DNA from: Acidobacteriota bacterium
Lineage (GTDB): Bacteria > Acidobacteriota > Vicinamibacteria > Fen-336
Reading direction: 5' to 3'
Assembly (NCBI GenBank): GCA_003223555.1
Contig: QHVM01000085.1
Location: 92,211 to 156,210 of the forward strand
Length of the DNA: 64,000 bases
Positions 9,434 through 57,486 of the stretch are shown piece by piece. Under the pieces are notes generated by a model that saw only the letters and a program-made list of their open reading frames with translations, did not search any database and was not told the DNA's origin. Position 1 is the first letter of the stretch. Each line of letters starts with the position of its first letter. The translations under genes were made by a program, and so were the position numbers.

Positions 9434-9508
9434 TGGAGCGGGAAACGGGATTCGAACCCGCGACTTCGACCTTGGCAAGGTCGCACTCTACCACTGAGTT
9501 ATTCCCGC
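9434..9508 (-). tRNA. tRNA-Gly (anticodon GCC)
   Basis: Reverse complement reads GCGGGAATAACTCAGTGGTAGAGTGCGACCTTGCCAAGGTCGAAGTCGCGGGTTCGAATCCCGTTTCCCGCTCCA. Cloverleaf with anticodon loop CTTGCCAAG and encoded CCA. Confidence 0.9.
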
Positions 9509-9641
9509 CCTTGCGCATGACCATCTTACGAACGGTGGCCGGACGCGTCAACCCCGTCCCGTCGATACCTGGCCGAGGGAGCGCCTCCCGCCAGAGGATC
9601 TTGATCGACCTTTCGCCTTCTTCTATAGTGGGTTCCTCCGG

Positions 9642-9717
9642 GGCGGCGTAGCCAAGTGGTTAAGGCGGAGGTCTGCAAAACCTCTACTCTCCGGTTCAAG
9701 TCCGGACGCCGCCTCCA
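9642..9717 (+). tRNA. tRNA-Cys (anticodon GCA)
   Basis: GGCGGCGTAGCCAAGTGGTTAAGGCGGAGGTCTGCAAAACCTCTACTCTCCGGTTCAAGTCCGGACGCCGCCTCCA. Acceptor GGCGGCG/CGCCGCC, anticodon loop CTGCAAA, encoded CCA. Confidence 0.9.
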
Positions 9718-16019: not shown

Positions 16020-16105
16020 ACCGCCAGGATCGGGAGGAGAGAGCGGATGTGGGAGGCGCGCAACGGGCGCCCCCCAGCTTCGGGGAACCGGTCCGCGAAC
16101 GAGCG

Positions 16106-17221
16106 TCAGCGGAGGGCGCGCAGGTTCAAGATCTGCGTCAAGAGGCTCGTGAGGATGCTGTAGTTACCGTTGGAATACCGTCCATACTGAGAGCGGCCAT
16201 AGTAACCGTCCTCGTAACCGCGGCGGAAGCCCTCCCGGAAGTAGTAGTTGTACTCGGGCTGGTCGATGTACCGGCCCGTATAGCCGTAATTCGCATCCTG
16301 GTAGGCGTAGGAGCCTTCGGGATCGAAGCGCCAGCCGTCCTGCCGGTCGGCGCGGCCGGCCCGGAAGCCTTCCTCATATCCGTATCGGACCGCCTGCCGG
16401 AGCAGGTCCGCCCCGTACTGGTTCGTCTCGTAGTAGCGCCCGTCATAGGAGTAGCCGTAGCTGGGGGCGGTGTAGAAGTATGGGTCGTTGCTGTAGTCGT
16501 AGGAGCGCGCCAGCGCCAGACGCTGCTGGCGCAGGCGGCCCAGGTACTGCTCCTGGAAGCGGTACTGCGCGAGGCGACGCTGCTGCTCCAGGGCCTGTGC
16601 GCGCTGCTGGGCGAGGTTCAGCTGCTGCTCCAGCCGCTGGTTGTACGCCGCCGCGCGCTGGCGCTGCTGCTCGATGAGCTGCTGCTGGCGCTCCTGCGAG
16701 AGGCGCTGCTGCCGGAGCGGCTGTGCTGATGACACCTGCTGCTGAGCCTGCTGCTCTTGCCGGATCTGTCGCTGCGGCTGCTGTTGTTGGGCCTGTTGCG
16801 CCTGACGGGCCTGACGCTCCTGCTGGCGCTGGTGTTGAGCCTGCGGTTGCTGCTGCGCCTGCTGGGCCTGCCGCTCCTGGCGCTGCGCCTGCTGCCGGCC
16901 CTGCTCTTGCGCCTGTTGCTCCTGCCGGCCCTGCCGCTCCTGCTGGCGCTGCTGTTGAGCCTGCGGTTGCTGCTGTGCCTGCTGGGCCTGGCGCTCCTGC
17001 CGCTGCTGCTGGCGTTGCGCCTGCTGCTGAGCCTGTTGTTGCGCCTGTTGCTCCTGCCGGCCCTGCCGCTCCTGCTGGCGCTGCTGTTGAGCCGGCTGGG
17101 CCCGGCCTTGCTGCGGCTGATCCTGCTTCTTCTCCTTCTTGTCCTGCTCTCCCTGCTTCTGCCCCTCCTGCATCGCACTCACCAGCGCCAAGCTCGCGCG
17201 GTTCCAGCCGGTCATGATCAT
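16106..17221 (-). CDS. secreted Gln/Arg-rich tandem-repeat protein with a Tyr/Gly/Arg-rich C-terminal low-complexity domain
   Basis: Signal peptide MIMTGWNRASLALVSA. About 200 aa of imperfect roughly 40-aa repeats (QQERQGRQEQQAQQQAQQQAQRQQQRQERQAQQAQQQPQAQ...). Non-repetitive Y/G-rich tail (YGYSYDGRYY ... YGRSQYGRYSNGNY). The minus strand was chosen over antisense plus-strand ORFs because of the signal peptide and the complex tail. Confidence 0.55.
   Translation of the reverse strand: MIMTGWNRASLALVSAMQEGQKQGEQDKKEKKQDQPQQGRAQPAQQQRQQERQGRQEQQAQQQAQQQAQRQQQRQERQAQQAQQQPQAQQQRQQERQGRQEQQAQEQGRQQAQRQERQAQQAQQQPQAQHQRQQERQARQAQQAQQQQPQRQIRQEQQAQQQVSSAQPLRQQRLSQERQQQLIEQQRQRAAAYNQRLEQQLNLAQQRAQALEQQRRLAQYRFQEQYLGRLRQQRLALARSYDYSNDPYFYTAPSYGYSYDGRYYETNQYGADLLRQAVRYGYEEGFRAGRADRQDGWRFDPEGSYAYQDANYGYTGRYIDQPEYNYYFREGFRRGYEDGYYGRSQYGRYSNGNYSILTSLLTQILNLRALR
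16780..17110 (-). repeat. in-frame tandem DNA repeats (units of about 120-126 bp) encoding the Q/R-rich repeats
   Basis: Recurrent CTGCTGGCGCTG...GCCTGCTGGGCCTG blocks are visible on the plus strand. They are coding, not a CRISPR array (no spacer structure). Confidence 0.7.
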
Positions 17222-17357
17222 GAAAGCCTCCCGAGTATCACGTCCACGGATGTAACGGAGCAAGAAGCGCGCCAGTCAGGCCGCGCCGTAAACCGCGGGT
17301 TTCGAGGGCTTTGAGTCCCAAGCCGCCTGGGATAGTGTTGCTGCCGGAGGGCAACTC

Positions 17358-29325: not shown

Positions 29326-30063
29326 ATGTTCACCCGCATCGGCCGTTTCTTCAAGGCCGTCTTCAACGCCATCCTGGGCGAGGCGGAAGCCCGGGTGCCG
29401 GTCTCCATGCTGGAGCAGTCGGTGCGGGAGATGCTGGACAACCTCCGCGTCCTCCGCGAGGCGACCGCCACCACCATCGCCTTCGAGACCAAGGCCAAGC
29501 GCGAGCTGGACGCCCAGAACGCCCGGGTCAAGAACCTGGACGCCCAGGCCGAGGAGGCCCTCCGGCAGGGCAACGAGAAGCTCGCCCGCCGCGCGCTGCA
29601 GCTCCAGGTCGAGGCCAAGTCGACGCGGGAGCGCTCCGACCAGGTCTACAAGGCCGCCCGGCTGCGGGCCGACAACGCCCGGAGCAAGCTCAAGATCGAG
29701 GAGGAGCGGGTCGAGGGCAAGATCCGGCAGCTCGGCGAGCTGAAGGCGATCAACGCGATGAATCAGGCCCAGCGCCGTATGCAGGAGATCACCGACGAGT
29801 ACAACATCGACGGCGCGGTGTCGGTGTTCGACAAGACGGCCGGATCAATCCAGGAGCAGGCCGACAAGCTCTCGGCCATGGACACGATCGCCGTCTCGGA
29901 GGGCGAGGAGCTGGACCGGCAGCTCTCGGCGCTGGGCCGCAAGAGCGAGGTCGACTCCGCCCTCGACGCGCTGAAGGCGCGGCTCGGCGAGGCCCCGGCC
30001 GCGAGCTCGGCCGCCCCGGCCAAGGCCAAGGAAAAGGTCTCCTCGGCCTTCGACGAGAAATAG
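29326..30063 (+). CDS. pspA: PspA/IM30-family protein (phage-shock protein A-like)
   Basis: N-terminal [21 protein letters not shown] and the coiled-coil pattern typical of PspA/Vipp1. Confidence 0.85.
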
Positions 30064-30230
30064 CAATCGCCGCGCGCGGCGCGCGATTCACTCGCGCGAA
30101 GCAAACGGGGTTCAAGGGGGCGCGCGACAACTCCGGGCGCTCTCTGCGTCCTCCGCGTTGAACGGCCGGGGTGGTATGATTGGCGGTTGCGTTTTCGCGG
30201 CTGACGGCTGCGTGGGCGCACCCTGATTCC

Positions 30231-45229: not shown

Positions 45230-45970
45230 GTGGTGGATCCGGCCGCCGTGGACGTGGTCCTCGTGCGCCCGCGCAACCCCGCCAACGTCGCCGCCGCATG
45301 CCGCGCGCTGAAGAACATGGGGCTGTGGTCGCTGCGCCTGGTGGGGGAGGACCCCGGGCTCGCCCGGCCCGAGGCGCGGAACCTCGCCTACGGCGCCTGG
45401 GACCTGCTCGACGCGGTGGTCTTCTTCCCCACGCTCGCCGACGCGGTGGCCGACGCCGCGCTGGTCGCGGGGACGTCGGGCCGCGACGATCCGGCCGCGT
45501 GGTCCCCCCGGCGGCTGGCCGTGGAGGGCGCAGCGCGAGCCGACGGGGGACGGACCTCGCTCGTGTTCGGTCCGGAGTCGAGCGGGCTCACCGGCGACGA
45601 GCTGGCGCGGTGCCACGTTCGCGTGCGTATCCCGGCCGACGCCGCGCAGCCGTCGCTGAACCTGGCCCAGGCGGTCCTGATCCTGGCCTACGAGGTCCGC
45701 CTCTCCGCGGAACAGGCGGCTCCGGCCGAGTCGGGGCCGCCGCGCGCCGCGGCCGGCGAGCTGGAGGCCGCGCTGCGCGAGCTCCGGGAAGGCCTCGTCG
45801 GAATCGGCTACCTGAGCCCGGCCAACCCGGACGCGATCCTGGCCGAGCTCCGCTTCCTCATCGCGCGCGCGGGCCCTACGCCGAGGGAGGCGGCCCTCCT
45901 GCGCGGCCTCGCCCGCCAGCTCTGCTGGGCGTCCGGCCGCATTGCGGGCAAGGATGAAGAAAACCGATAA
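45230..45970 (+). CDS. SpoU/TrmH-family tRNA/rRNA 2'-O-methyltransferase (TrmJ-like)
   Basis: VVLVRPRNPANVAAACRALKNMG and LVFGPESSGL motifs. GTG start right after the AT-rich TATACT. Confidence 0.75.
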   Translation: MVDPAAVDVVLVRPRNPANVAAACRALKNMGLWSLRLVGEDPGLARPEARNLAYGAWDLLDAVVFFPTLADAVADAALVAGTSGRDDPAAWSPRRLAVEGAARADGGRTSLVFGPESSGLTGDELARCHVRVRIPADAAQPSLNLAQAVLILAYEVRLSAEQAAPAESGPPRAAAGELEAALRELREGLVGIGYLSPANPDAILAELRFLIARAGPTPREAALLRGLARQLCWASGRIAGKDEENR

Positions 45971-47700: not shown

Positions 47701-48978
47701 ATCACCGACCGCACCGACCTCACGCCGGGCAACAACCCCGCCGAGAAAGCGCTCCTGGTCGGCGTCGCGAGCGGACCCCGGGCCCGGCTCGAGACCGAGA
47801 CCTCGGTCGAGGAGCTGGGCGCCCTGGCCCGCACCGCGGGGGCCCAGGTCGTGGGCACCATCGTCCAGGAGCGCAAGCGCAAGGACCCGGCGACGCTCAT
47901 CGGCCGCGGCAAGGTGGAGGAGGTGGCGCGGACGGCGGAGGCCAAGCGCGTCGACCTGCTGCTCTTCGACGACGAGCTGTCGCCCGCCCAGCAGCGCAAC
48001 CTCGAGCGCGCGGTGGGCCGCAAGACCCTGGACCGCACCCAGCTCATCCTCGACATCTTCGCCCGGCGGGCCCGGAGCCGTGAGGGCCGGCTGCAGGTGG
48101 AGCTGGCCCAGCTCGACTACCTCCTGCCCCGCCTGACCGGCCGGGGCGCGCTCATGTCGCGGCTGGGCGGCGGCATCGGCACGCGCGGACCGGGGGAGAC
48201 GAAGCTCGAGACGGACCGCCGCCGCATCCGCCACCGGATCCAGGCCGTCAAGCGGGAGATCGAGAAGGTCCGGCGCGACCGCCACACCCGCCGCGAGGCC
48301 CGGCAGCGCACGCAGGCCCCGGTGGTGGCGCTGGTGGGCTACACCAACGCGGGCAAGTCGACGCTGTTCACGGCCCTGACCCGGGCCCGGGCCGAGGTCT
48401 CCGACCAGCTCTTCATGACCCTCGACCCGCTCATCCGCAAGGCCGACTTCGGGCCCGGCCGCGAGGTGCTGGTCGTCGACACCGTGGGCTTCATCCAGAA
48501 GCTGCCCCACGCCCTGGTCGCCGCGTTCCGGGCTACGCTCGAAGAGCTGACCGAGGCCGACCTGCTGCTGCACGTGATCGACGCTTCGGCGGAGGACATG
48601 GAGGAGCGCGAGGCGGCGGTGGAGTCGGTGCTGCGGGAGATCGGCGCGGCGGACCACCCGCGCCTCCCGGTGCTGAACAAGGCCGACCTCGTCCCCCCCG
48701 CGCGCGCCGCGGGACTGCGGGCCGCGCGCCCCGACGCGGTGCTCGTCTCGGCGAGCACGGGTCGGGGGCTCGACGAGCTGGCCGCGGCCCTCAGCCGCCG
48801 CCTGGCCCTGGCGCCCCAGCGGGTCCGGCTGCGATTCCCCTCGCGGGACGCCCGCGCCATCGCCGGCGTGTACGCGGCCGGGAGGGTCGTGGCCCATGAG
48901 GTGCGCGGCGACGAGGTCACGCTCGAGGCGGAGATCCCCGAGCGCCTGCTGGAGCGGTACCGGGAGCATCTCTTGTGA
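47701..48978 (+). CDS. hflX: GTPase HflX; 5' end uncertain, with no canonical start codon
   Basis: The HflX N-domain (ALLVGVASG...SVEELGALARTAGAQVVG) is in frame upstream of the ORF-track GTG at 47851. It continues into the G-domain (GYTNAGKST, DTVGF, NKAD). The only stop upstream is the tsaC TAG, in the same frame. ATC 47701 follows a GAAGG/GAGAAGG RBS-like stretch. Confidence 0.8.
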   Translation: MTDRTDLTPGNNPAEKALLVGVASGPRARLETETSVEELGALARTAGAQVVGTIVQERKRKDPATLIGRGKVEEVARTAEAKRVDLLLFDDELSPAQQRNLERAVGRKTLDRTQLILDIFARRARSREGRLQVELAQLDYLLPRLTGRGALMSRLGGGIGTRGPGETKLETDRRRIRHRIQAVKREIEKVRRDRHTRREARQRTQAPVVALVGYTNAGKSTLFTALTRARAEVSDQLFMTLDPLIRKADFGPGREVLVVDTVGFIQKLPHALVAAFRATLEELTEADLLLHVIDASAEDMEEREAAVESVLREIGAADHPRLPVLNKADLVPPARAAGLRAARPDAVLVSASTGRGLDELAAALSRRLALAPQRVRLRFPSRDARAIAGVYAAGRVVAHEVRGDEVTLEAEIPERLLERYREHLL

Positions 48979-50288
48979 GACCGGACGCCGTCGCGCTGGC
49001 CCTCGCCCTCGGCGGGGCCGCGCTCCTGCCTACTTGCGCCCCTCCGCCGCGGGCGCCGCTGCCGGACACCGACGAATACGTGTTCCCGGCCTCGGCTCCG
49101 GGCCAGCTCTCGCCGTCCGAGTCCCAGCGCCTGCAGAAGGCCTGGGCGCAGATCCTGGCCGGCCGAGCGCTCGAGGCGCAGAAAGACCTCCAGAAGCTCC
49201 TGGCGAAGAGTCCCGGCCTGGTGCCGGCGGAGACGGCCCTGGCCTATGCCCGCCTGCGGGCGGGGCAGCTCGACGATGCGGCACGCAGCTTCGAGAACGT
49301 CATCGGGCGTCGCCCCGATTACGTGCCCGCCCGGGCGGGCGCCGCGGCCACTGCGGTGCGGCGGGGCGAGGCCGAGGCCGCCCTGCGGCTCTACCGCGGG
49401 GCGCTGGAGGCGGAGCCGGGCAGCGGCTTCCTCCGGCAGCGGGTGGCCGAGCTGCGCGTCCAGGTGACCGAGCGCCGCGTGGCCGGGGCCCGCGCCGCCC
49501 AGGCCGCGGGCCGCTTCGAGGAGGCGGTCGCGACCTATCGCCTGGCCCTGGAGGCGGCGCCGGAGGTCGCGGGCCTTCGGCTCGAGCTGGCCAACCTCCT
49601 GGCCTCCGGTGGAGACGTCGAAGCCGCCGTGGGGGTCCTGCGGGCCGACCCGACCGAGGATCGGCAGGTCCTGCTGCGCCTGGCGGACCTCGCGACGCAG
49701 CGCAAGGACTATCCCGGCGCGCTCGAGGCCTACCGCCGGCTCCTGGCCCGCGACCCGCACGACGCGGAGGCGCAGAGGCGCTCGCGGGAGGTCCGGGAGG
49801 CGGTCGAGCTGGAGCAGATGCCCGAGGAGTACCGGCGCATCGCGACCGCGACCGCGATCACGCGCGCGGACCTGGCGGCCCTGGTTGCGGTGAAGGTGAC
49901 CGCGCTTGCCCGCGTGCCCGCCGGCGAGCCCCGGGTGGCGGTGGACATCTCCGGGTCCTGGGCGCGCAGCCACATCATCAAGGCCCTGGCCTACGACATC
50001 GTGACCGTCTACCCCAACCATACCTTCCAGCCGGCCGCCACCGCCCGCCGCGGCGACCTGGCCCGCGCGGTGCAGCGTGTCCTCGACCTGTTGAAGTGGC
50101 CGGCGGGCCCCGCCCCCAACCCCACCGACATGTCGCACAGCAACGTCTACTACTACCCGGCCACCCGCGTGGTGGGGGCAGGGCTCATGGACCTGACGCC
50201 GGCCGGCGGCTTCGAGGCCTGGCGGCCGGCGTCGGGTCCGGAAGCGGTCGCGGTCGTCGAAGAGCTGGTCCGCCTGGTGGGGCCCTAG
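48975..50288 (+). CDS. lipoprotein with TPR repeats and a C-terminal SLH (S-layer homology) domain
   Basis: Signal and lipobox-like LLPTC, TPR-like helices, then an SLH-like region (ITRADLAALVAVKV ... YPNHTFQPAATARRGDLARAV). Confidence 0.6.
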   Translation: MRPDAVALALALGGAALLPTCAPPPRAPLPDTDEYVFPASAPGQLSPSESQRLQKAWAQILAGRALEAQKDLQKLLAKSPGLVPAETALAYARLRAGQLDDAARSFENVIGRRPDYVPARAGAAATAVRRGEAEAALRLYRGALEAEPGSGFLRQRVAELRVQVTERRVAGARAAQAAGRFEEAVATYRLALEAAPEVAGLRLELANLLASGGDVEAAVGVLRADPTEDRQVLLRLADLATQRKDYPGALEAYRRLLARDPHDAEAQRRSREVREAVELEQMPEEYRRIATATAITRADLAALVAVKVTALARVPAGEPRVAVDISGSWARSHIIKALAYDIVTVYPNHTFQPAATARRGDLARAVQRVLDLLKWPAGPAPNPTDMSHSNVYYYPATRVVGAGLMDLTPAGGFEAWRPASGPEAVAVVEELVRLVGP

Positions 50289-50314
50289 AGGCCGTACGAG
50301 ACTGAGCCAAGGCT

Positions 50315-50352
50315 GCGAGCGTAGCGGGATTCACTCCCGCGGAGCGAGCGGG
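50315..50352 (+). repeat. REP-like palindromic element, copy 1 (GCGAGCG-tAGCGGGATTCACTCCCGCgga-GCGAGCG)
   Basis: A hairpin GCGGGA/TCCCGC with a 5-nt loop, flanked by 7-bp direct repeats GCGAGCG. Matches copies at 54417-54454 (reverse orientation) and 57157-57209. Confidence 0.7.
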
Positions 50353-50356
50353 GGGT

Positions 50357-50420
50357 CTGGGGGGCGCGCCGCTAGCGCCCCCCAGCTGGATGAGGAGCGC
50401 GCCGCTAGCGCCCCCCAGCT
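50357..50420 (+). repeat. GC-rich hairpin (GGGGGGCGC-N7-GCGCCCCCC) followed by a 24-bp partial direct repeat
   Basis: CTGGGGGGCGCGCCGCTAGCGCCCCCCAG forms a perfect 9-bp stem. GCGCGCCGCTAGCGCCCCCCAGCT recurs 33 bp later. It lies between the TPR-SLH gene and crp. Confidence 0.6.
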
Positions 50421-50481
50421 CAATAACCGTGCTTGCCGTCCTTGACGGAGGCGTCTAATATCCTCACCGGAGGCCTCACCC

Positions 50482-51156
50482 ATGGACGAGAGGGAGGTCC
50501 TGCGGACCGTTCCCATCTTCTCGGAGCTGTCCGACGAGGACATCACGAGCCTGGCCCACCTGGCCCTCCGCAAGCGCTATCCCAAGGACACCGTCATCTT
50601 CTTCGAGAACGAGGAAGGCGATTTCTTCTTCACGATCCTCGAGGGGCGCGTCAAGGTCACGATCCTGGGCGACGACGGCCGCGAGGTCATCCTGTCCGTC
50701 CTGGGGCCCGGAGACTTCTTCGGCGAGATGGCGCTGCTCGACAACGAGCCGCGGTCGGCCACCGCAATTGCGGTCGAGGAGACGGAGCTGCTGTCGTTGC
50801 ACCGGAACGACTTCCAGACCGTCCTCAACGACAACCGCAGCATAACGACCGCCCTCATCCGCGTCCTCAGCGCGCGGCTGCGCCGGGCCAACCACCAGAT
50901 CTCGACCCTCGCGCTGCTCGACGTCTACGGCCGGGTGGCACGGGTCATCGTCGACATGGCCCGGGAGGAGGGCAAGCGGCTGCGCGACGGCCGCATCGCC
51001 TTCCGCCGCGCCACCCACCAGGAGATCGCCAACCGCATCGGGACGACCCGGGAGACGGTGACCCGCATGCTCAAGGACCTGGAGCGCCAGGGCCTGATCC
51101 ACGTCGAGGGCAAGGAGATCGTGGTCCAGCCCGACTTCGAGAAGGTCTTCGACTAG
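50482..51156 (+). CDS. Crp/Fnr-family transcriptional regulator
   Basis: cNMP-binding domain (GDFFGEMALLDNEPRSATA) and C-terminal HTH (HQEIANRIGTTRETVTRMLKDL). Confidence 0.9.
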   Translation: MDEREVLRTVPIFSELSDEDITSLAHLALRKRYPKDTVIFFENEEGDFFFTILEGRVKVTILGDDGREVILSVLGPGDFFGEMALLDNEPRSATAIAVEETELLSLHRNDFQTVLNDNRSITTALIRVLSARLRRANHQISTLALLDVYGRVARVIVDMAREEGKRLRDGRIAFRRATHQEIANRIGTTRETVTRMLKDLERQGLIHVEGKEIVVQPDFEKVFD

Positions 51157-51302
51157 GGCCTGGACCGGCCCTCCAACGCCGAGGACGCAGAGGAAAACGG
51201 AGAGGTCGCGGAGAACGGAGGGGAAGGATGGGGATCCCTTCTTAATTCCGTCTCTGCGTCCTCTCCGTTCCCCTCCGCGTCCTCTGCGTTAAAAGGCGAC
51301 AT

Positions 51303-52697
51303 CTAGAGCAGGCTCAGGAGGTGGTCCTTGATGCGGGCGCGGACGGCCTCGTCCCGCGTGGCCGTCAGGGCCATCTCCCACATCTCCACCGCCTTGCGCC
51401 AGAACTCCTGTTTCTGGTAGAGCGTGGCGAGGGCGGTGATCGCGTCGTAGAAGTCGGGCGTGATGTGCACCGCCCGCTCGTAGTGGTCGATCGCGTGGAA
51501 GACCATGCCCTTCTTCTCGTAGGCCAGGGCCAGGTAGTAGTGCAGCAGGTCGTTGAACTGGTCGATGGCCAGCCCGCGGCTGAAGGAGGCCACCGCGTCG
51601 TCGAGCCGCTCCTGCTTGAGCGCCACCACGCCTTCCTTGAGCTGCTGGCGCGCAGCCGCCTCCGAGCTGGGTGAGACCGCGGGGGCGCGGACCAGGAGCG
51701 CCTCCACGCGCCGCAGCAGCTCTGACGCTTCGAAGGGCTTCTCGAGATAGTCGTCCGCGCCGTACCTCTCCTTGACGTCGGCGGCGAAGCGCCAGCCGGT
51801 GTGGATCGCGGACACCATGATGACCGGGATGTGCCGGAAGCGCTCGCTCGTCTTGAGCTGGCGGCAGATCTCGAAGCCGTGCACTTCGGGCAGCATGCCG
51901 TCGAGCACGACCAGGTCGGGCGTGACCTCGCGCACCTTGGCCAGGGCCTCGCGCCCGCTGCGCGCGGTGACCACGCGGTACTTGCGGGACTGGAGGACGT
52001 GCTCCATCAGCTGCAGCACGGCCGGATCGTCGTCGACGGCCAGGACCGTCTGCACCTCCTCGACTGCGGGCACGCGCAGGGCGGCCGGGATCGGCACCTG
52101 GCGCAACGGGCTGCCGGCGAGCGTCTCGAAAACCGCGCGCTCCTTCTCCTCCAGCGGCACGATGGGCAGCGGCTTCAGCTCCTCGGGCTCCGGAGGGGGC
52201 GGGGCCGGCTCCGGCGCGCCCTCGCGCGGCCGCTGGACGTTCGGGGTGACGGTCCGCTGGCCGCTCTTCAGGGCCCGGCGCGCCTCGGCGACCGCATTCT
52301 TCACCGCCGACTCGAGCGCGATGAGGGGCGCGAGGCGGACGCCGGTCTTGAACTCGATCTCCGAGATCAGCGCGCGGTCGAGCGGGTCGGCCATCGCCAC
52401 CTGCAGCCGGGTCGCTTCCACCCGCACCGGGAAGACCAGGTGCCGCTCGCACAGCTCCAGGGGCACGATGTCGAGCAGGGACAGCTCGATCTCCGTCTTG
52501 GAGAGGTCGACGTGGGGGACCCCGAGCTGGCGGCCGAGGTAGGTCACCGCGAACTTCTCGGTCAGGATGTGCTGGCGCACCAGCACGCTGGCCAGCCGCT
52601 CCCCGTAGGTGCGCTGGAGCGAGAGGGCTTCGGTGAGCTGGGAAGGGGTGATGAGGTCGGCCTCGCGAAGGATCTCGCCCAGCTCCTTCCTAGGCAC
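51303..52697 (-). CDS. MshEN/GspE-N-terminal-like domain + response-regulator receiver + TPR protein
   Basis: N-terminal T2SSE_N-like region (GEILREADLITPSQLTEALSLQRTYGERLASVLV...VPLELCERHLVFPV). Receiver domain (VLAVDDDPAVL ... LVVLDGMLP ... KP). C-terminal TPR repeats. Confidence 0.7.
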   Translation of the reverse strand: MPRKELGEILREADLITPSQLTEALSLQRTYGERLASVLVRQHILTEKFAVTYLGRQLGVPHVDLSKTEIELSLLDIVPLELCERHLVFPVRVEATRLQVAMADPLDRALISEIEFKTGVRLAPLIALESAVKNAVAEARRALKSGQRTVTPNVQRPREGAPEPAPPPPEPEELKPLPIVPLEEKERAVFETLAGSPLRQVPIPAALRVPAVEEVQTVLAVDDDPAVLQLMEHVLQSRKYRVVTARSGREALAKVREVTPDLVVLDGMLPEVHGFEICRQLKTSERFRHIPVIMVSAIHTGWRFAADVKERYGADDYLEKPFEASELLRRVEALLVRAPAVSPSSEAAARQQLKEGVVALKQERLDDAVASFSRGLAIDQFNDLLHYYLALAYEKKGMVFHAIDHYERAVHITPDFYDAITALATLYQKQEFWRKAVEMWEMALTATRDEAVRARIKDHLLSLL

Positions 52698-53829
52698 CGG
52701 GCGCCGTCTCCTCCACGCTCACGGTGATGTCCAGCCGGCGCCGGCCGCGGGCGACCGTCAAGCGCAGCCGCGATCCGACCGCGGCCCGGGCCAGCTCGTT
52801 GCGGAGCTGGGCGGCGGACTCGACCGGCCGGCCCTCCACCGCCATCACCACGTCTCCCGGCGCGACCCCGGCCCGGTCCGCGGCGCTGCCCCTCAGCAGC
52901 TCCACCACCAGGACGCCTTGCCGCTCCGGCGCTCCCGGCAGCGTGTCCTCGTTGACATCGGCCACGCGGGTGATTCCCACGCTGCCTCGCACCACGCGGC
53001 CGTGGGCCACGATCTGGTCCACCACCTGCCGGGCGAGGTTGGCCGGCACGGCGAAGCCGATGCCCTGGTAGCCGCCGGTCTCCGAGTAGATCGCGGTGTT
53101 GATGCCGATCAGCTCGCCCCGAGCGTCGACGAGGGCGCCCCCGGAGTTGCCGGGGTTGATCGCGGCGTCGGTCTGGATGAAGTCCTCGTAATCCACGATG
53201 CCGATGTTCGACCGTCCGGTCGCGCTGATGATGCCCATCGTCACCGTCTGGTTGAGCTGGAACGGATTGCCCACCGCCACCACGTACTCGCCGACCTCGG
53301 CCCGGGACGAGTCGCCCCACGGGAGGGTGGGCAGCCCGTGGGCGTCCACCTTCACCACCGCGATGTCGGTCACGGGGTCGGTGCCCATCAACATCCCCCG
53401 CAGTCGTTGATGGGCGGCGGTGGTGATGGCGATGCGGCTGGCGTGCTCGATCACGTGGTTGTTCGTCACGATGACGCCGCCCTCGCCGACGATGACGCCC
53501 GACCCGAGGCTGGTCTTGCGCTCCTCCTGGGGGATGCGGAAAGGCAGGTCGCGGCCGAAGAACTCCCGGAAGAACGGGTCGGCGAGGAAGGGCGAGCCTT
53601 CCGTGCGGTACACCTGCAGCGCGGAGATGTTCACGACCGCGGGGGTGGCCCGGCGCGCGATCGCGCGGAAATCGGGGCCGGGAGAGGCGGCCGGCCCCGC
53701 GGCCGCGGGGATGGCCGCCGCGGCCCGCGTCGGCGCCTCGAGGCGGCTGGCGAAGCGCGCGCCGAGCAGCACGCCGGCGATCAGGGACCCCGAGGCCACG
53801 GTCAGCAGCACCGGCCGCCCGTGTCTCAC
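52690..53829 (-). CDS. degP: periplasmic serine endoprotease DegP/HtrA family (trypsin + PDZ)
   Basis: Catalytic triad context (TNNHVI, DIAVVKV, GNSGGAL) and one PDZ domain. GTG start overlapping the hsp20 stop (GTGA). Confidence 0.9.
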   Translation of the reverse strand: MRHGRPVLLTVASGSLIAGVLLGARFASRLEAPTRAAAAIPAAAGPAASPGPDFRAIARRATPAVVNISALQVYRTEGSPFLADPFFREFFGRDLPFRIPQEERKTSLGSGVIVGEGGVIVTNNHVIEHASRIAITTAAHQRLRGMLMGTDPVTDIAVVKVDAHGLPTLPWGDSSRAEVGEYVVAVGNPFQLNQTVTMGIISATGRSNIGIVDYEDFIQTDAAINPGNSGGALVDARGELIGINTAIYSETGGYQGIGFAVPANLARQVVDQIVAHGRVVRGSVGITRVADVNEDTLPGAPERQGVLVVELLRGSAADRAGVAPGDVVMAVEGRPVESAAQLRNELARAAVGSRLRLTVARGRRRLDITVSVEETAPGA

Positions 53830-54266
53830 TCGCGCTCCCGCCGCCAGCCGGCGCGCCCGTGCGTCTTGGGCAGCTCCAGGCGCAGGACGCCGTCGCGGAA
53901 CTGCGCGCTGACGCGCGCCGGGTCGACCTCCTCGGTGAGCTTGAAGGAGCGGAAGAACGGGCCGTGGCTGCGCTCCATGCGGTGGAACCGATCCGGCCGC
54001 TGGCCGAGCGCCCGTCGCTGGCCCTTCACGACCAGGACGTCGCCGTCGACCTGGACCTCGACGTCGTCCTCCTCGATCCCCGGCAACTCGACGTCGACCA
54101 CGAAGCCCTCCGGCATCTCGTAGGCGTCGGCCAGGGGCGTCCAGGTCGCCGAGCCCACCAGGGCCGGCTCCTCCAGCCGGCCGGCGAAGCTCTCCTCGAA
54201 GAGCCGGTTCATCCGCTCCTGCAGGGTCAGCAGGTCCCGCAGGGGATCCCACTTGCGCTCGGTCAC
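53826..54266 (-). CDS. Hsp20/alpha-crystallin-family small heat-shock protein
   Basis: RKWDPLRDLLTLQERMNRLF N-terminus and alpha-crystallin domain (GVLRLELPK). Start set at GTG about 54264. The ORF-track extension to 54383 would run through the hairpin repeats. Confidence 0.8.
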   Translation of the reverse strand: MTERKWDPLRDLLTLQERMNRLFEESFAGRLEEPALVGSATWTPLADAYEMPEGFVVDVELPGIEEDDVEVQVDGDVLVVKGQRRALGQRPDRFHRMERSHGPFFRSFKLTEEVDPARVSAQFRDGVLRLELPKTHGRAGWRRERE

Positions 54267-54324
54267 GGCCGTGCCTTCCGGTGGCAGATCGGCAACGATC
54301 GAGTGTACGGTCGGCGTGTCGTCT

Positions 54325-54427
54325 TGAGCAAGGGGGTGCTGGGGCGCGTCCCTTGAACCCCCGCTCCGCTCCTCATTGAGCAAGGGAGTGCTAGTGGCGC
54401 ACCCCCTTGAACCCCCGCTCGCTGCGC
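54325..54427 (-). repeat. two tandem roughly 51-bp units, each containing a hairpin (CAAGGGGGTGC...GCACCCCCTTG), in the hsp20 5' leader / mutS 3' region
   Basis: TTGAGCAAGGGGGTGCTGGGGCGCGTCCCTTGAACCCCCGCTC and TTGAGCAAGGGAGTGCTAGTGGCGCACCCCCTTGAACCCCCGCTC are direct repeats with internal inverted repeats. Confidence 0.65.
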
Positions 54428-54454
54428 GGGATTGAATCCCGCTCCGCTCGCAGC
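54417..54454 (-). repeat. REP-like palindromic element, copy 2 (reverse orientation)
   Basis: GCTCGCtGCGCGGGATTGAATCCCGCTCCGCTCGC is the reverse complement of the copy-1 pattern, including both 7-bp flanks. It sits 10 nt from the mutS stop. Confidence 0.7.
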
Positions 54455-54464
54455 CGTGGCCAAG

Positions 54465-57116
54465 CTAACCGCTCAGCTTCAGCCGCTTGCGGAGCTCGTC
54501 GAGCAGGGCCAGGGCCTGCAGGGGCGTCAGTTGCTCGAGGTCGAGCCGGCGCAGGTCCTCCAGCACCGACTCCTCCTGGCCGGCGAAGAGGGCGAGCTGG
54601 CGGCCGCCCTCGGCCGGCGCCGCCGGCTGATCGCTGCGGGCCAGGCGGGGCCGTCCTTCGCGGTCGAACTCGGTGCGCTCGAGGTTGCGCAGGATCTCCT
54701 GGGCCCGGGCCACCACCGGCACCGGAAGCCCGGCCAGCCGCGCGACCTGGATGCCGAAGGAGCGATCGGATCCCCCCGGCTCGATCTTCCGCAGGAAGAC
54801 GACGCTGTCCCGCCACTCGCGCGCCGACACGTGCAGGTTGCCGACCCCGGCCAGGTCCGCGGCGAGGTCGGTCAGCTCGTGGTAGTGGGTGGCGAAGAGC
54901 GTCTTGCCCCCCGCCGCGCGGTCGCGCGCGATGTGCTCCGCCACCGCCCACGCGATGGAGAGGCCGTCGAAGGTCGCGGTGCCACGGCCGATCTCGTCGA
55001 GAAGGATGAGGCTGCGCGCGGTCGCCTGGCGGAGGATGTGGGCCGTCTCCTGCATCTCCACCATGAAGGTGGACTGGCCGCGCAGGATGTGGTCGGTCGC
55101 CCCCACGCGGGTGAAGATCCGGTCGACGACGCCGACCTTGGCCTCCCGGGCGGGGACGAAGCAGCCCATCTGGGCCATGACCACGACGAGCGCGGTCTGG
55201 CGGAGGAAGGTCGACTTGCCGCCCATGTTGGGGCCGGTGAGGACGAGGAGCCGCGCCGCCCCGTCGCCCATCTTGAGGTCGTTGGCCACGAACGGCTCGG
55301 GCAGCACGCGCTCCATGACCGGGTGGCGGCCCTCGACGTACAGGAGCTCGTCGCCCGCTCCCACGCGCGGCTTGACGTAGTTGTAGCGCGCCGACACCTC
55401 GGCCATCGTCGCCAGGACGTCGAGGGTGGCCGCGGCGCGCGACGTGCGCTGGACGGCGCGGGCGGCGGCCGCCACCCGGCCGCGCAGGCCGTCGAAGATC
55501 TCCGCTTCCCGCTCCCGGATCCGCTCGTCCGCCCGCAGCACCTTCTCCTCGTACTCCTTCAGCTCGGGGGTGATGAAGCGCTCGCCGCCGGCGATCGTCT
55601 GCTTGCGCACGTAGTCGGGGGGGACGAGGCTTAGGTTGGACCGGCTGACCTCGATGTAGTAGCCGAAGACCCGGTTGAACCGCACCTTGAGCGAGGCGAT
55701 TCCCGTCCGCCCGCGCTCGCGCTCCTCGATGGCGGCGATGGTGGTCCGGCCGCCGTGGCTCATCTGCCGCAGCTCGTCGAGCTCGGCATCGACGCCGTCG
55801 CGCACCAGCCCGCCGTCGCGCACGGCGGCGGGCGGCTCGTCGACGAGGGTCGACTCGACGTCGGCCGCCACTTCCAGGGGGGGATCGAGGTCCTTCAGCT
55901 GGCCGCGCACCAGAGGGGCCGCGCAGCCTTCGGCGGCCGCGGCGGCGTCGGGCAGGGCCCGCAGCGAGCGGGCCAGGGCGACGAGGTCGCGGGGCGAAGC
56001 GGTGCCGAGGGTGATCCGCCCGACGATGCGGTCCAGGTCCTGCACGCCGTGCAGCGCCTCCCGCAGTCGCCCCCGCGCCACGGTGCGGAAGGCCAGCTCC
56101 TCGACCGCGTCGAGGCGGTCCTGGATCGGCTCCACGTGGACGAGGGGCCGGAGGATCCACTCGCGGAGCAGGCGCGATCCCATCGCGGTGGCCGTCTCGT
56201 CGAGCACGTCGAGCAGCGTGCCCCGCCGGCCCCCGTCGGCCAGGTTCTCGACGAGCTCGAGGTTGCGCCGGGTCAGGCCGTCGATGACGAGCCCGTCCTC
56301 CTGGTGACGCGTGCGGAGGGAGGTGACGTGGGCCAGGTCGCGCTTCTGGGTCTCCCGCACGTAGCGGAAGACGGCCCCCGCCGCCGCCGCGGCGCGGGGC
56401 AGCGACTCGCAGCCGAAGGCCTCCAGGCTGGCGACGCCGAAGTGGGCGACGAGGTCGCGGCGCGCGGAGCCCGGGTCGAACGCCGCCACGTCGAGGAGGG
56501 TCCGGGGCAGCGCGCCTTCCGGCTGGGCGGGGTCGGCGAGCCAGCCGGGCAGCTCGGCGCCCCGGGGCACCAGGACCTCGCGGGGGCGGGTGGCGCCCAT
56601 CTCGTCGCGGAGGCGGTCCCACCTTGCCGTCCCGGCCCACTCGCTCACGAAGAAATCACCGGTGGTGGCGTCGAGCCACGCCGCCCCCAGGAGGGCTTCG
56701 CCGGGCGCGAGGGCGAGGACGTAGGAGGTCTCGCCGGCGTCGAGGGCGGAGGCCTCGAGCTGGGTGCCCGGCGTGACCACCCGCACCACCTCCCGGCGCA
56801 CGACGCCCTTGGCGCTCCGGGGGTCCTCCATCTGCTCGCAGAGCGCGACGCGGAAGCCCTGCTTGACGAGGCGGGCCACGTGGGCGGATGCCGCGTGATG
56901 GGGCACCCCGCACATCGGGATGGCGGCGCCGTCCGGGTCCTTGGCGCGGGAGGTGAGCGCGATCTCGAGGGCGCGCGAGGCGACCACCGCGTCCTCGAAG
57001 AACAGCTCGTAGAAGTCACCCATGCGGAAGAAGAGGAGCGCGTCGGGGTGCTCGGCCTTCATCCGGTGATACTGCTGCATGGCCGGCGTGAAGGCAGCAG
57101 GGGTGGCGGCGGACAT
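54465..57116 (-). CDS. mutS: DNA mismatch repair protein MutS
   Basis: N-terminal TPMMQQY-like (TPAMQQYHRMKAEHPDALLFFRMGDFYELF), Walker A GPNMGGKST, 883 aa. Confidence 0.95.
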   Translation of the reverse strand: MSAATPAAFTPAMQQYHRMKAEHPDALLFFRMGDFYELFFEDAVVASRALEIALTSRAKDPDGAAIPMCGVPHHAASAHVARLVKQGFRVALCEQMEDPRSAKGVVRREVVRVVTPGTQLEASALDAGETSYVLALAPGEALLGAAWLDATTGDFFVSEWAGTARWDRLRDEMGATRPREVLVPRGAELPGWLADPAQPEGALPRTLLDVAAFDPGSARRDLVAHFGVASLEAFGCESLPRAAAAAGAVFRYVRETQKRDLAHVTSLRTRHQEDGLVIDGLTRRNLELVENLADGGRRGTLLDVLDETATAMGSRLLREWILRPLVHVEPIQDRLDAVEELAFRTVARGRLREALHGVQDLDRIVGRITLGTASPRDLVALARSLRALPDAAAAAEGCAAPLVRGQLKDLDPPLEVAADVESTLVDEPPAAVRDGGLVRDGVDAELDELRQMSHGGRTTIAAIEERERGRTGIASLKVRFNRVFGYYIEVSRSNLSLVPPDYVRKQTIAGGERFITPELKEYEEKVLRADERIREREAEIFDGLRGRVAAAARAVQRTSRAAATLDVLATMAEVSARYNYVKPRVGAGDELLYVEGRHPVMERVLPEPFVANDLKMGDGAARLLVLTGPNMGGKSTFLRQTALVVVMAQMGCFVPAREAKVGVVDRIFTRVGATDHILRGQSTFMVEMQETAHILRQATARSLILLDEIGRGTATFDGLSIAWAVAEHIARDRAAGGKTLFATHYHELTDLAADLAGVGNLHVSAREWRDSVVFLRKIEPGGSDRSFGIQVARLAGLPVPVVARAQEILRNLERTEFDREGRPRLARSDQPAAPAEGGRQLALFAGQEESVLEDLRRLDLEQLTPLQALALLDELRKRLKLSG

Positions 57117-57144
57117 GGGCTGGACCGGTTACCGTCGCGAGCTA

Positions 57145-57486
57145 TCAGCCACGGCCGCGAGCGGAGCGGGATTCATTCCCCCCGGGCCCGCAGAGCGGAC
57201 CCGCTCGCGACGTGCCGAGAATCGTCCCTCCCTTGGGGAGGATGCCGGTCACGGAGAACGAGGTCAGCGGCTCGACGTCGCCCTCGATCAGCCCCCGGAA
57301 GCCGTTGCGGATCCCCAGCACCTCCATGCTCGAGGACTGCGCGCGGCGCACCACGGCGCGGATCACCGCGTTGAGACCGGGGCAGTCTCCGCCGCCGGTC
57401 AGGATTCCGACTCTCACGAACGGAATTCCGTCACGGGCGAAAGTATAGACTAACCGCATCGTGCGCGTGCTGGCCGTGGACACCAC
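57145..57486 (-). pseudogene. pfkA: 5' fragment of 6-phosphofructokinase (about 95 aa of homology), truncated
   Basis: [26 protein letters not shown]...[12 protein letters not shown]...GGTILGTSR matches the PFK N-terminus. Homology stops at about 57207, exactly at REP-like copy 3, and mutS begins 30 nt further on. Confidence 0.7.
57157..57209 (+). repeat. REP-like palindromic element, copy 3 (degenerate)
   Basis: GCGAGCGGAGCGGGATTCATTCCCCCC...GCTCGCGA shares the 5' flank and hairpin core with copies 1 and 2. Confidence 0.55.

Follow-up and report, generated by a model that had tools for sequence, protein, structure and literature searches.

A dispersed intergenic repeat of two unlike hairpins in Vicinamibacteria, probably a new REP/BIME-like family

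The window analysed here comprises 64,000 nucleotides of contig QHVM01000085.1 (positions 92,211 to 156,210, forward strand) from an Acidobacteriota bacterium of the Vicinamibacteria, has a G+C content of about 71% and contains four copies of an intergenic sequence that consists essentially of two unlike hairpins, here called A and B. An initial annotation had recorded three of these sites as a T-arm-like hairpin flanked by 7-bp GCGAGCG direct repeats. Repeat membership, architecture, base-pairing by covariation, genomic setting and presence/absence polymorphism lead us to propose, with a probability of roughly 0.75, that the sites belong to a dispersed non-coding intergenic repeat family of about 95-100 nt which is a new, fairly unremarkable relative of repetitive extragenic palindromic (REP) sequences and bacterial interspersed mosaic elements (BIMEs). 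Gene identities in the window were derived from Pfam and from a public contig (L001) of a soil metagenome, which is from the same population and 99.8% identical; loci from other genomes are cited below by labels of the same type. The genes and features are:

30058-30166, + strand: copy 4, diverged (covariance model 37.5 bits, E 3.8e-7)
48975-50288, + strand: gene for a TPR/SLH protein
50301-50404, + strand: copy 1, complete A-B unit (92.0 bits, 103/103 covariance-model positions)
50306-50314, + strand: leader of copy 1 (from sequence, predicted fold and alignment)
50315-50321, + strand: lower-stem 5' strand of copy 1, GCGAGC(G)
50324-50340, + strand: inner hairpin of copy 1, GCGGGA-TTCAC-TCCCGC, with the internal-loop sides G-T-A before and G-G-A after it
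50344-50350, + strand: lower-stem 3' strand of copy 1
50350-50355, + strand: G-run of copy 1
50357-50385, + strand: hairpin B of copy 1
50391-50424, + strand: partial second unit behind copy 1, consisting of hairpin B loop, 3' arm and tail (GAGCGCGCCGCTAGCGCCCCCCAGCTCAAT); direct repeat, 93% identity
50482-51156, + strand: gene for a crp-family regulator
51303-52697, - strand: gene for a response regulator
about 52690-53811, - strand: gene for an HtrA protease
53826-54266, - strand: hsp20
54300-54361, - strand: second unit behind copy 2, lacking hairpin A and consisting of GAGCGGAGCG, G-run and a B-type hairpin (from the alignment; partial model match at 54329-54361)
54362-54465, - strand: copy 2, complete A-B unit beginning at the mutS stop codon (91.1 bits, 103/103 model positions)
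54381-54409, - strand: hairpin B of copy 2
54445-54451 and 54416-54422, - strand: lower-stem strands of copy 2
54426-54442, - strand: inner hairpin of copy 2
54465-57116, - strand: mutS
57143-57205, + strand: copy 3, a 5' partial copy (20.2 bits in the covariance model)
57157-57163, + strand: left GCGAGCG of copy 3
57166-57182, + strand: hairpin A of copy 3 (5' arm, loop and partial 3' arm)
57184-57202, + strand: extra small hairpin of copy 3, GGGCCCGC-AGA-GCGGACCC, also present in a nested variant at L020
57145-57486, - strand: open reading frame (ORF) encoding the N-terminal piece of a phosphofructokinase (positions 1-73 out of 277 in Pfam PFK; likely start 57459)
from 57461, + strand: tsaB and rimI

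The 36-nt pattern GCGAGCG-N-AGCGGGATTCANTCCCGC-NNN-GCGAGCG is matched without mismatches at 50315-50350 (+) and 54416-54451 (-), with 0 matches expected from 100 shuffles, and its 28-nt left part, GCCACGGCYGCGAGCGGAGCGGGATTCA, occurs with at most two mismatches at copies 1, 2 and 3, where shuffles again gave an expectation of 0. Copies 1 and 2 are 84% identical across at least 94 nt (inverted match), and the repeat unit is about 100 nt long rather than 36 nt, comprising leader, hairpin A, G-run and a GC-rich hairpin B. With the covariance model, 4 copies were found in the 64-kb window. The architecture first described for three copies is exact in copies 1 and 2, but what copy 3 has in common with them is confined to leader, left GCGAGCG, 5' arm and loop (57148-57182), and the segment taken for its right direct-repeat flank (57203-57209) in fact reads CGCTCGC, the inverse complement. 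In the inner hairpin of copy 4 (GCGCGA-TTCAC-TCGCGC) a G-C pair has become C-G, two mismatches compensating each other; its lower stem is degenerate (GCGCGC opposite GCAAAC) and is followed by a B-type hairpin.

As the initial annotation had stated for three of them, all window copies are intergenic. Copies 1, 2 and 4 each lie between a stop codon and the next start, oriented like both neighbouring genes. Copy 1 begins 13-18 nt past the TPR gene's stop codon, with 57 nt between the end of the partial unit that trails it and crp, copy 2 begins 0-5 nt past the mutS stop with a trailing partial unit that stops about 34 nt short of hsp20, and copy 4 sits between a gene stop (about 30053) and uvrA. 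To judge from the sequence, the missing hairpin A in the unit at 54300-54361 would be consistent with a deletion between 6-nt direct repeats, AGCGGG, and may be a further trace of slippage.

A census of one genome per species (GTDB species representatives) was made with the 19-nt core only, leaving the flanks free, and the core was found at no fewer than 103 loci, at least. Most of the listed loci belong to Acidobacteriota, chiefly to metagenome-assembled genomes (MAGs) of Vicinamibacteria, and display the same architecture; one MAG (QHVJ01) has core matches on at least 16 contigs. Among the matches listed, 82 distinct oriented copies carry a G-run behind the core and the aligned subset shows the full architecture. 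The alignment of 58 copies, which was used for consensus and pairing counts, yields the consensus GCAACGGGCT-GCGAGCG-N-AGCGGGATTCACTCCCGCG-N-AGCGAGC-GGGGGG-TCTGGGGGGTGCG-NCGC-AGCACCCCCCAG-CTCAATGA. In this alignment no terminal inverted repeats are seen, the leader (GCAACGGGCT...) not being complementary to the tail (...CAGCTCAATGA or ...CAGAAGAGA). Covariance model and nhmmer searches detected further copies with other cores. Rfam, in gathering and permissive modes, returned chance-level matches only (best E 0.19), and in the literature searched no description of the repeat sequence or of Vicinamibacteria repeats was found. The family is previously undescribed, and with at least 103 loci, no Rfam match, no literature description found, and both filled and empty orthologous sites (see below), the original suggestion of an undescribed dispersed REP-like family has been borne out.

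Some matches and interpretations were discarded. Matches in Helicobacter sp. MIT 00-7814 are coincidental and lie within a coding peptide repeat, EPSGIHSRAGDT, and a single match in viral contigs lacks the family flanks and is attributed to chance. Core sites of an attC-like type and a small conserved ORF were considered from the alignment and dismissed.

Two tail subfamilies occur behind hairpin B at many loci (for example L048 3974-3990, L093, L041 and L102), one ending in CCAG-CTCAATGA and the other in a purine-rich CCAG-AAGAGAGAAAG, the latter often directly ahead of a start codon, like a ribosome-binding site. An antisense gene has its stop codon within a few bases of the element's right end at about 20 sites.

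The GCGAGCG flanks are explained by the structure of hairpin A. Placed antiparallel, GCGAGC and GCGAGC form the pairs G-C, C-G, G.A, A.G, G-C and C-G, and this lower stem reads as a direct repeat because its central pairs G.A and A.G replace Watson-Crick pairs. Flank variants of other copies are Watson-Crick inverse complements, such as GCACGC/GCGTGC (L015), GCGCGC/GCGCGC (L032, L087), CGCGGC/GCCGCG (L050) and GCCCAC/GTGGGC (L009). The flanks change jointly into inverse complements and are therefore the two strands of one stem. Between this lower stem and the 6-bp inner stem lies a symmetric GNA/GNA internal loop. In the 58-copy alignment the two central lower-stem positions are G.A/A.G in 43 and 50 copies, respectively, and the internal-loop position 22-44 is G.A in 52. 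Pairing cells amount to 89%, versus 81% after shuffling, and the covariation score is 0.196 versus 0.066 in shuffled alignments (reached in 0 of 500 shuffles), with slid-partner controls at or below 0.059. Double changes occur in all six pairs of the lower stem and in 8 of the 11 pairs of hairpin B, a GC-rich 11-bp stem with a 7-nt loop; hairpin B differs in sequence between lineages. Compensatory variants of the inner stem were detected with the model (GCGCGA/TCGCGC, GCCGAA/TTCGGC, GCGGAA/TTCCGC and GCCGGA/TCCGGC), and in all of them, window copy 4 included, the TTCAC loop is unchanged; no other loop was seen among the copies examined.

A resemblance of hairpin A to the T-arm of tRNAs, also proposed at the outset, is superficial. 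A T-loop has 7 nt, T-psi-C-R-A-N-N, closed by G53-C61 and held in a T54...A58 arrangement. The loop (A)TTCAC(T) has a C where A58 would stand, and ARAGORN and the Rfam tRNA model find only two true tRNAs in the window, at 9434-9717.

For an analysis of the genomic setting, genes were called with a codon-model caller and checked against public gene calls, resulting in 55 occupied intergenic regions. Convergent regions account for 33% of the occupied but 11% of the unoccupied regions in the same loci (Fisher p 5e-5), and divergent regions for 5% versus 14%. In co-directional gene pairs, 19 copies are sense and 15 antisense, so there is no orientation bias (p 0.6). Stops or starts lie at varying distances from the element, between 0 and about 100 nt, a conserved ORF is not apparent, and the neighbours are unrelated housekeeping genes, for example fusA-tuf (L093) and nusG-rplK (L048).

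Three sites of L048 were compared with orthologous DNA of two related MAGs (L057 and L060). In L048 the spacer of nusG and rplK is taken up by a 105-nt element, while it measures 25 nt (unrelated sequence) in L060 and 4 nt in L057; at a site next to a tRNA, L048 and L057 have the element and L060 does not. No target duplication was seen at these filled and empty sites. At the orthologous filled sites of L061 and L089, pairing is kept through compensatory changes. Between L004 and L051 the element is far more divergent than its 98%-identical flank, a sequence pattern suggestive of rapid turnover or of copies converting one another. For mutS itself, 80 loci, including relatives with 75% identical MutS, gave 0 family members; the closest of these loci end before the mutS-hsp20 spacer, and the filled/empty comparison was made at the other loci described. 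In the spacer behind mutS, L106 (5960-6060) has GTACGTGGGGYAGGGCTTCAGCCCTGC three times in tandem, here too with TTCA as the loop, and L107 (4230-4320) has GAATTCTGAATTCAGAATGCAGA palindromes. Different hairpin families seem to fill this spacer in different lineages.

Head-to-tail arrays of identical 78-80 nt units were found at L071 (four units), L072 (three) and L018 (three), with junctions at varying points within the loop or the 3' arm of hairpin B. Such variable junctions fit slippage or template switching at hairpin B, as far as they can be read from the sequences, and not site-specific cleavage. The 78-80 nt spacing had suggested a CRISPR array (short palindromic repeats clustered at regular spacing), which was ruled out as the inter-core segments are identical too. 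Separately, three variant elements (L020 3699-3859 on the - strand, L055 344-476 and L074 2591-2735) carry extra hairpins inside hairpin A, placed between its inner stem and the 3' lower-stem strand; the insert in L020 holds a second A-like hairpin (CGAATTCACTTCG) and is an element nested within an element.

The strongest competing explanation is that the repeats are functional RNA signals, either terminators without a U-tract or mRNA 3'-end stabilisers, which are kept by selection and are not selfish DNA. We consider this unlikely, though it has to be taken seriously. It would account for the location at gene 3' ends with a 4-fold enrichment in convergent regions, for the predicted high stability and the covariation of hairpin B, for the compensatory changes by which orthologous copies keep their pairing (L061/L089 and also L004/L051), and for the excess of G.T over A.C in hairpin B (10 versus 3). 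However, hairpin A is strongly strand-asymmetric and yet the orientation in co-directional pairs is 19:15. No T-run follows hairpin B and none of the copies scored in an intrinsic-terminator scan; copies also lie inside normal operons (the fusA-tuf and nusG-rplK copies mentioned), the same sites lack the element in close relatives, a terminator would not be expected to form tandem arrays of identical units, and no Rfam family matches. Within the proposed REP/BIME-like family, hairpin B would plausibly serve, secondarily, as an RNA 3'-end hairpin.

Copy 3 lies at the edge of the truncated pfk gene. The PFK homology stops at ...GGTILGTSR (about 57205), and the last 19 codons of the ORF run across the reverse complement of copy 3. 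In four relatives (L105, L117, L106 and L112; MutS 56-75% identical) tsaB and mutS are directly divergent, 27-190 nt apart, with neither pfk nor element between them. The corresponding interval in the window measures 344 nt, of which about 63 nt are the 5' part of the element and about 255 nt pfk 5' coding sequence, and it is lineage-specific because these four relatives lack both. The homology of copy 3 to the nested variant of L020 ends exactly at the start of pfk. The initial annotation was thus right about the adjacency of copy 3 and the pfk breakpoint, but, by sequence comparison, the junction is placed in the extra hairpin module of a variant element and not in the A hairpin. A breakpoint within a variant element fits the idea of these elements as fragile sites, and the view that they are recombinogenic stands insofar as they slip, form arrays and are gained or lost.

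For copy 3 alone, the junction of element and pfk might be an assembly chimera made at the repeat, with no real rearrangement behind it. Repeats of about 100 nt are classic points of breaks and mis-joins in metagenome assemblies, the pfk fragment adjoins the tsaB start codon without any spacer, and tsaB and mutS are immediate neighbours in relatives. Nevertheless, a chimera is improbable: the independent public contig L001, 99.8% identical and two indels apart, has the same join, and a mis-join would require two errors to coincide, because the insert is still bordered by tsaB and mutS, the neighbours known from relatives.

A further alternative, that the repeats are double-stranded DNA operators for a dimeric regulator and mark a regulon, appears very improbable. 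Loop and flanks are conserved, and crp, hsp20 and uvrA each have a window copy immediately upstream, but neighbouring genes are functionally unrelated, divergent regions, which bear promoters, are depleted, covariation keeps the pairing and not the sequence, and identical tandem arrays occur. Least credible of all is a miniature transposon (MITE, a miniature transposable element with inverted repeats) with the GCGAGCG flanks as target-site duplications, as the initial annotation had supposed: identical 7-mers do surround the core in copies 1 and 2 and the family is dispersed and polymorphic, but the flanks agree in sequence across most independent copies, although the search left them free, have conserved element sequence on both sides (leader to the left, G-run and hairpin B to the right) and change together into inverse complements, leader and tail are unrelated, so that terminal inverted repeats are absent, and filled and empty sites show no duplication.

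A sister family was found in MAGs of Gaiellaceae/Gaiellales (L003, L026, L036, L052, L062, L063, L067, L078, L098 and L100). It shares the 19-nt core of hairpin A, retains the GNA/GNA loop, has an outer stem whose Watson-Crick pairs covary, and carries, about 35-45 nt further on, a covarying second hairpin, AAGGAGGGGGCTC-RYG-GGGGAACC-ATG-GGTTCCCCC-YRY, which differs from hairpin B and has a Shine-Dalgarno-like start. One MAG labelled Actinomycetota (L029) has the acidobacterial A+B type.

In the REP/BIME-like family that we propose, each unit is composed, from 5' to 3', of a GCAACGGGCT-like leader, hairpin A, a run of six G, hairpin B and a short tail. Units accumulate downstream of genes, notably convergent ones, in either orientation, and are gained or lost at orthologous sites, in a REP/BIME-like manner. 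Locally they grow into head-to-tail arrays and decay into partial units, most likely because replication slips or switches template at hairpin B and at short direct repeats within the unit. Hairpin A may be the module that a trans-acting spreading factor recognises in single-stranded form, because loop, GNA/GNA internal loop and stem geometry are kept in the Gaiellales sister family. The non-Watson-Crick positions of hairpin A are purine-purine on the written strand and pyrimidine-pyrimidine on its complement, and by fold prediction the extended hairpin A forms on the written strand, the complement of copy 1 forming no more than the inner stem. This strand asymmetry, which comes without a bias in orientation to transcription, points to single-stranded DNA rather than RNA, the same logic as in REP systems with their REP-associated tyrosine transposases (RAYTs) and in IS200/IS605 insertion sequences. 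The most likely candidate for a mobiliser is an HUH/Y1 (RAYT-like) enzyme acting on single-stranded DNA, a suggestion that we make tentatively and that has less than even odds. Less likely still, hairpin A, with its inner stem, TTCAC loop, GNA/GNA internal loop and G.A-zipped lower stem forming well on one strand only, would be recognised by an undescribed trans-acting system that copies or processes the repeats, an HUH-type or other protein, common to Vicinamibacteria and Gaiellales, each lineage having its own second hairpin; in that case the system was presumably shared between Acidobacteriota and Actinomycetota by horizontal transfer.

Several points weigh against the proposed family or parts of it. 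Tblastn with three approximate Y1 transposase query sequences gave no match in about 2 Mb of locus sequence, no gene is enclosed by inverted copies in a REPtron-like arrangement in the loci examined, and both the GTAG/CGTC tag and the inverted dimers of RAYT-mobilised REPs and REPINs (REP doublets) are absent. Clustering of 591 predicted proteins from element-bearing loci, in a search for a partner gene, gave only unrelated housekeeping families. Gain and loss are not told apart with certainty at the filled and empty sites because no duplication or defined insertion site can be read there. Numbers of copies per genome are extrapolations only, from the scan with at least 103 loci, every genome being represented by MAG fragments. 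Because most copies were retrieved with a pattern that prescribed the inner stem, covariation there comes from about eight model-detected variants. DNA fold z-scores for hairpin A alone (-0.35 to -1.5) are not significant; because fold energies are weak, the case for hairpin A rests on covariation.

Other repeats and differences were noted in the window. An imperfect palindrome of 130 nt (51168-51297; 47-nt arms, 81% complementary) occupies the convergent spacer of crp and the response regulator gene and looks like a second, different repeat family; its GACGCAGAGGA-type motif is also found behind A-B elements in L085, L028 and window copy 4 (30140-30160). A lone lookalike of hairpin B, GGGAGGCGC-GCAACGG-GCGCCCCCC, is situated at 16050-16079, directly downstream of an ORF at 16106-17263 (-); it is 83% identical to the B unit of copy 1 and could represent either a remnant or a terminator-like hairpin of independent origin. 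The coding region at 16650-17110 is rich in CTGCTG imperfect tandem repeats, which are unrelated to the A-B repeats. Compared with L001, the window lacks 23 nt within tsaB (about 57543), where the frame is shifted after about 30 codons, and 29 nt near 45597; both indels are either strain variation or assembly differences.

The Vicinamibacteria, although abundant in soil, are represented almost exclusively by fragmented MAGs, and a 100-nt repeat with copies of the order of 100 per genome, by extrapolation, is a likely source of contig breaks and mis-joins in their assemblies. At the same time the A-B repeat is a ready marker for strain typing, and hairpin A provides a concrete bait for finding a partner protein. 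For annotation, the lesson is that a stem with tandem G.A mismatches looks like a direct repeat, which may lead to its misidentification as a target-site duplication. A G.A-zipped hairpin common to two phyla is the unusual feature of an otherwise expected kind of repeat.

With regard to known systems, hairpin B with its 11-bp GC-rich stem and 7-nt loop just past stop codons resembles an intrinsic terminator, but the element has no T/U tract, includes a conserved hairpin A and leader, and occurs inside operons and in arrays. Unlike MITEs, the A-B family is without terminal inverted repeats and its proposed duplications are constant, internal and covarying. BOX elements of Streptococcus pneumoniae and mycobacterial interspersed repetitive units (MIRUs) are modular intergenic repeats, inside or between operons, in which one module is reiterated head-to-tail in variable number, and neither is known to have a dedicated transposase. 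The A-B family is likewise a modular intergenic repeat with head-to-tail reiteration, but its sequences and hosts are unrelated to those of BOX and MIRUs, and MIRUs carry short ORFs coupled to flanking genes.

REP/BIME sequences and their RAYT (TnpA-REP) systems (Nunvar 2010, PMC2817692; Bertels and Rainey 2011, PMC3116915; Di Nocera 2013, PMC3733652) offer the closest parallels. Like them, the A-B family has a short GC-rich imperfect palindrome in many copies (hairpin A, about 35 nt), stems that covary between subfamilies, some REP stems also tolerating unpaired G/A, positions between co-directional and convergent genes, clusters with tandem reiteration and a modular mosaic make-up; similar families in distant organisms are possible for REPs as well. 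In contrast to REPs, there is no GTAG/CGTC foot: the inner stem is preceded by C-G-N-A, where N is G, A, C or T, and GTAG arises only if N is T, as in window copy 1. Whereas REPINs and BIMEs form head-to-head or tail-to-tail dimers or alternate in orientation, A-B elements are singletons or head-to-tail arrays, and only 3 sources among the loci listed have copies in both orientations, 2-4 kb or more apart. The unit is also longer (about 100 nt), has two unlike hairpins, and no RAYT was found with the approximate queries. In Quentin 2018 (PMC6006769), class 3 HuH-Y1 proteins of Acidobacteria and Planctomycetes are associated with 'atypical secondary structures', and Solibacter usitatus has about 600 high-copy atypical hairpins, termed REP-like rather than IS-like. 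These structures provide a precedent for non-canonical REP systems in the same phylum, but the CnGA foot described in that paper is absent from the A-B family, and none of the acidobacterial REPs retrieved by text search of the supplementary table resembles the A-B element. REP-type elements have been well studied only in Proteobacteria; the A-B family, with no GTAG and no inverted dimers, broadens their known forms, and its counterpart in a second phylum likewise broadens the range of REP-type elements.

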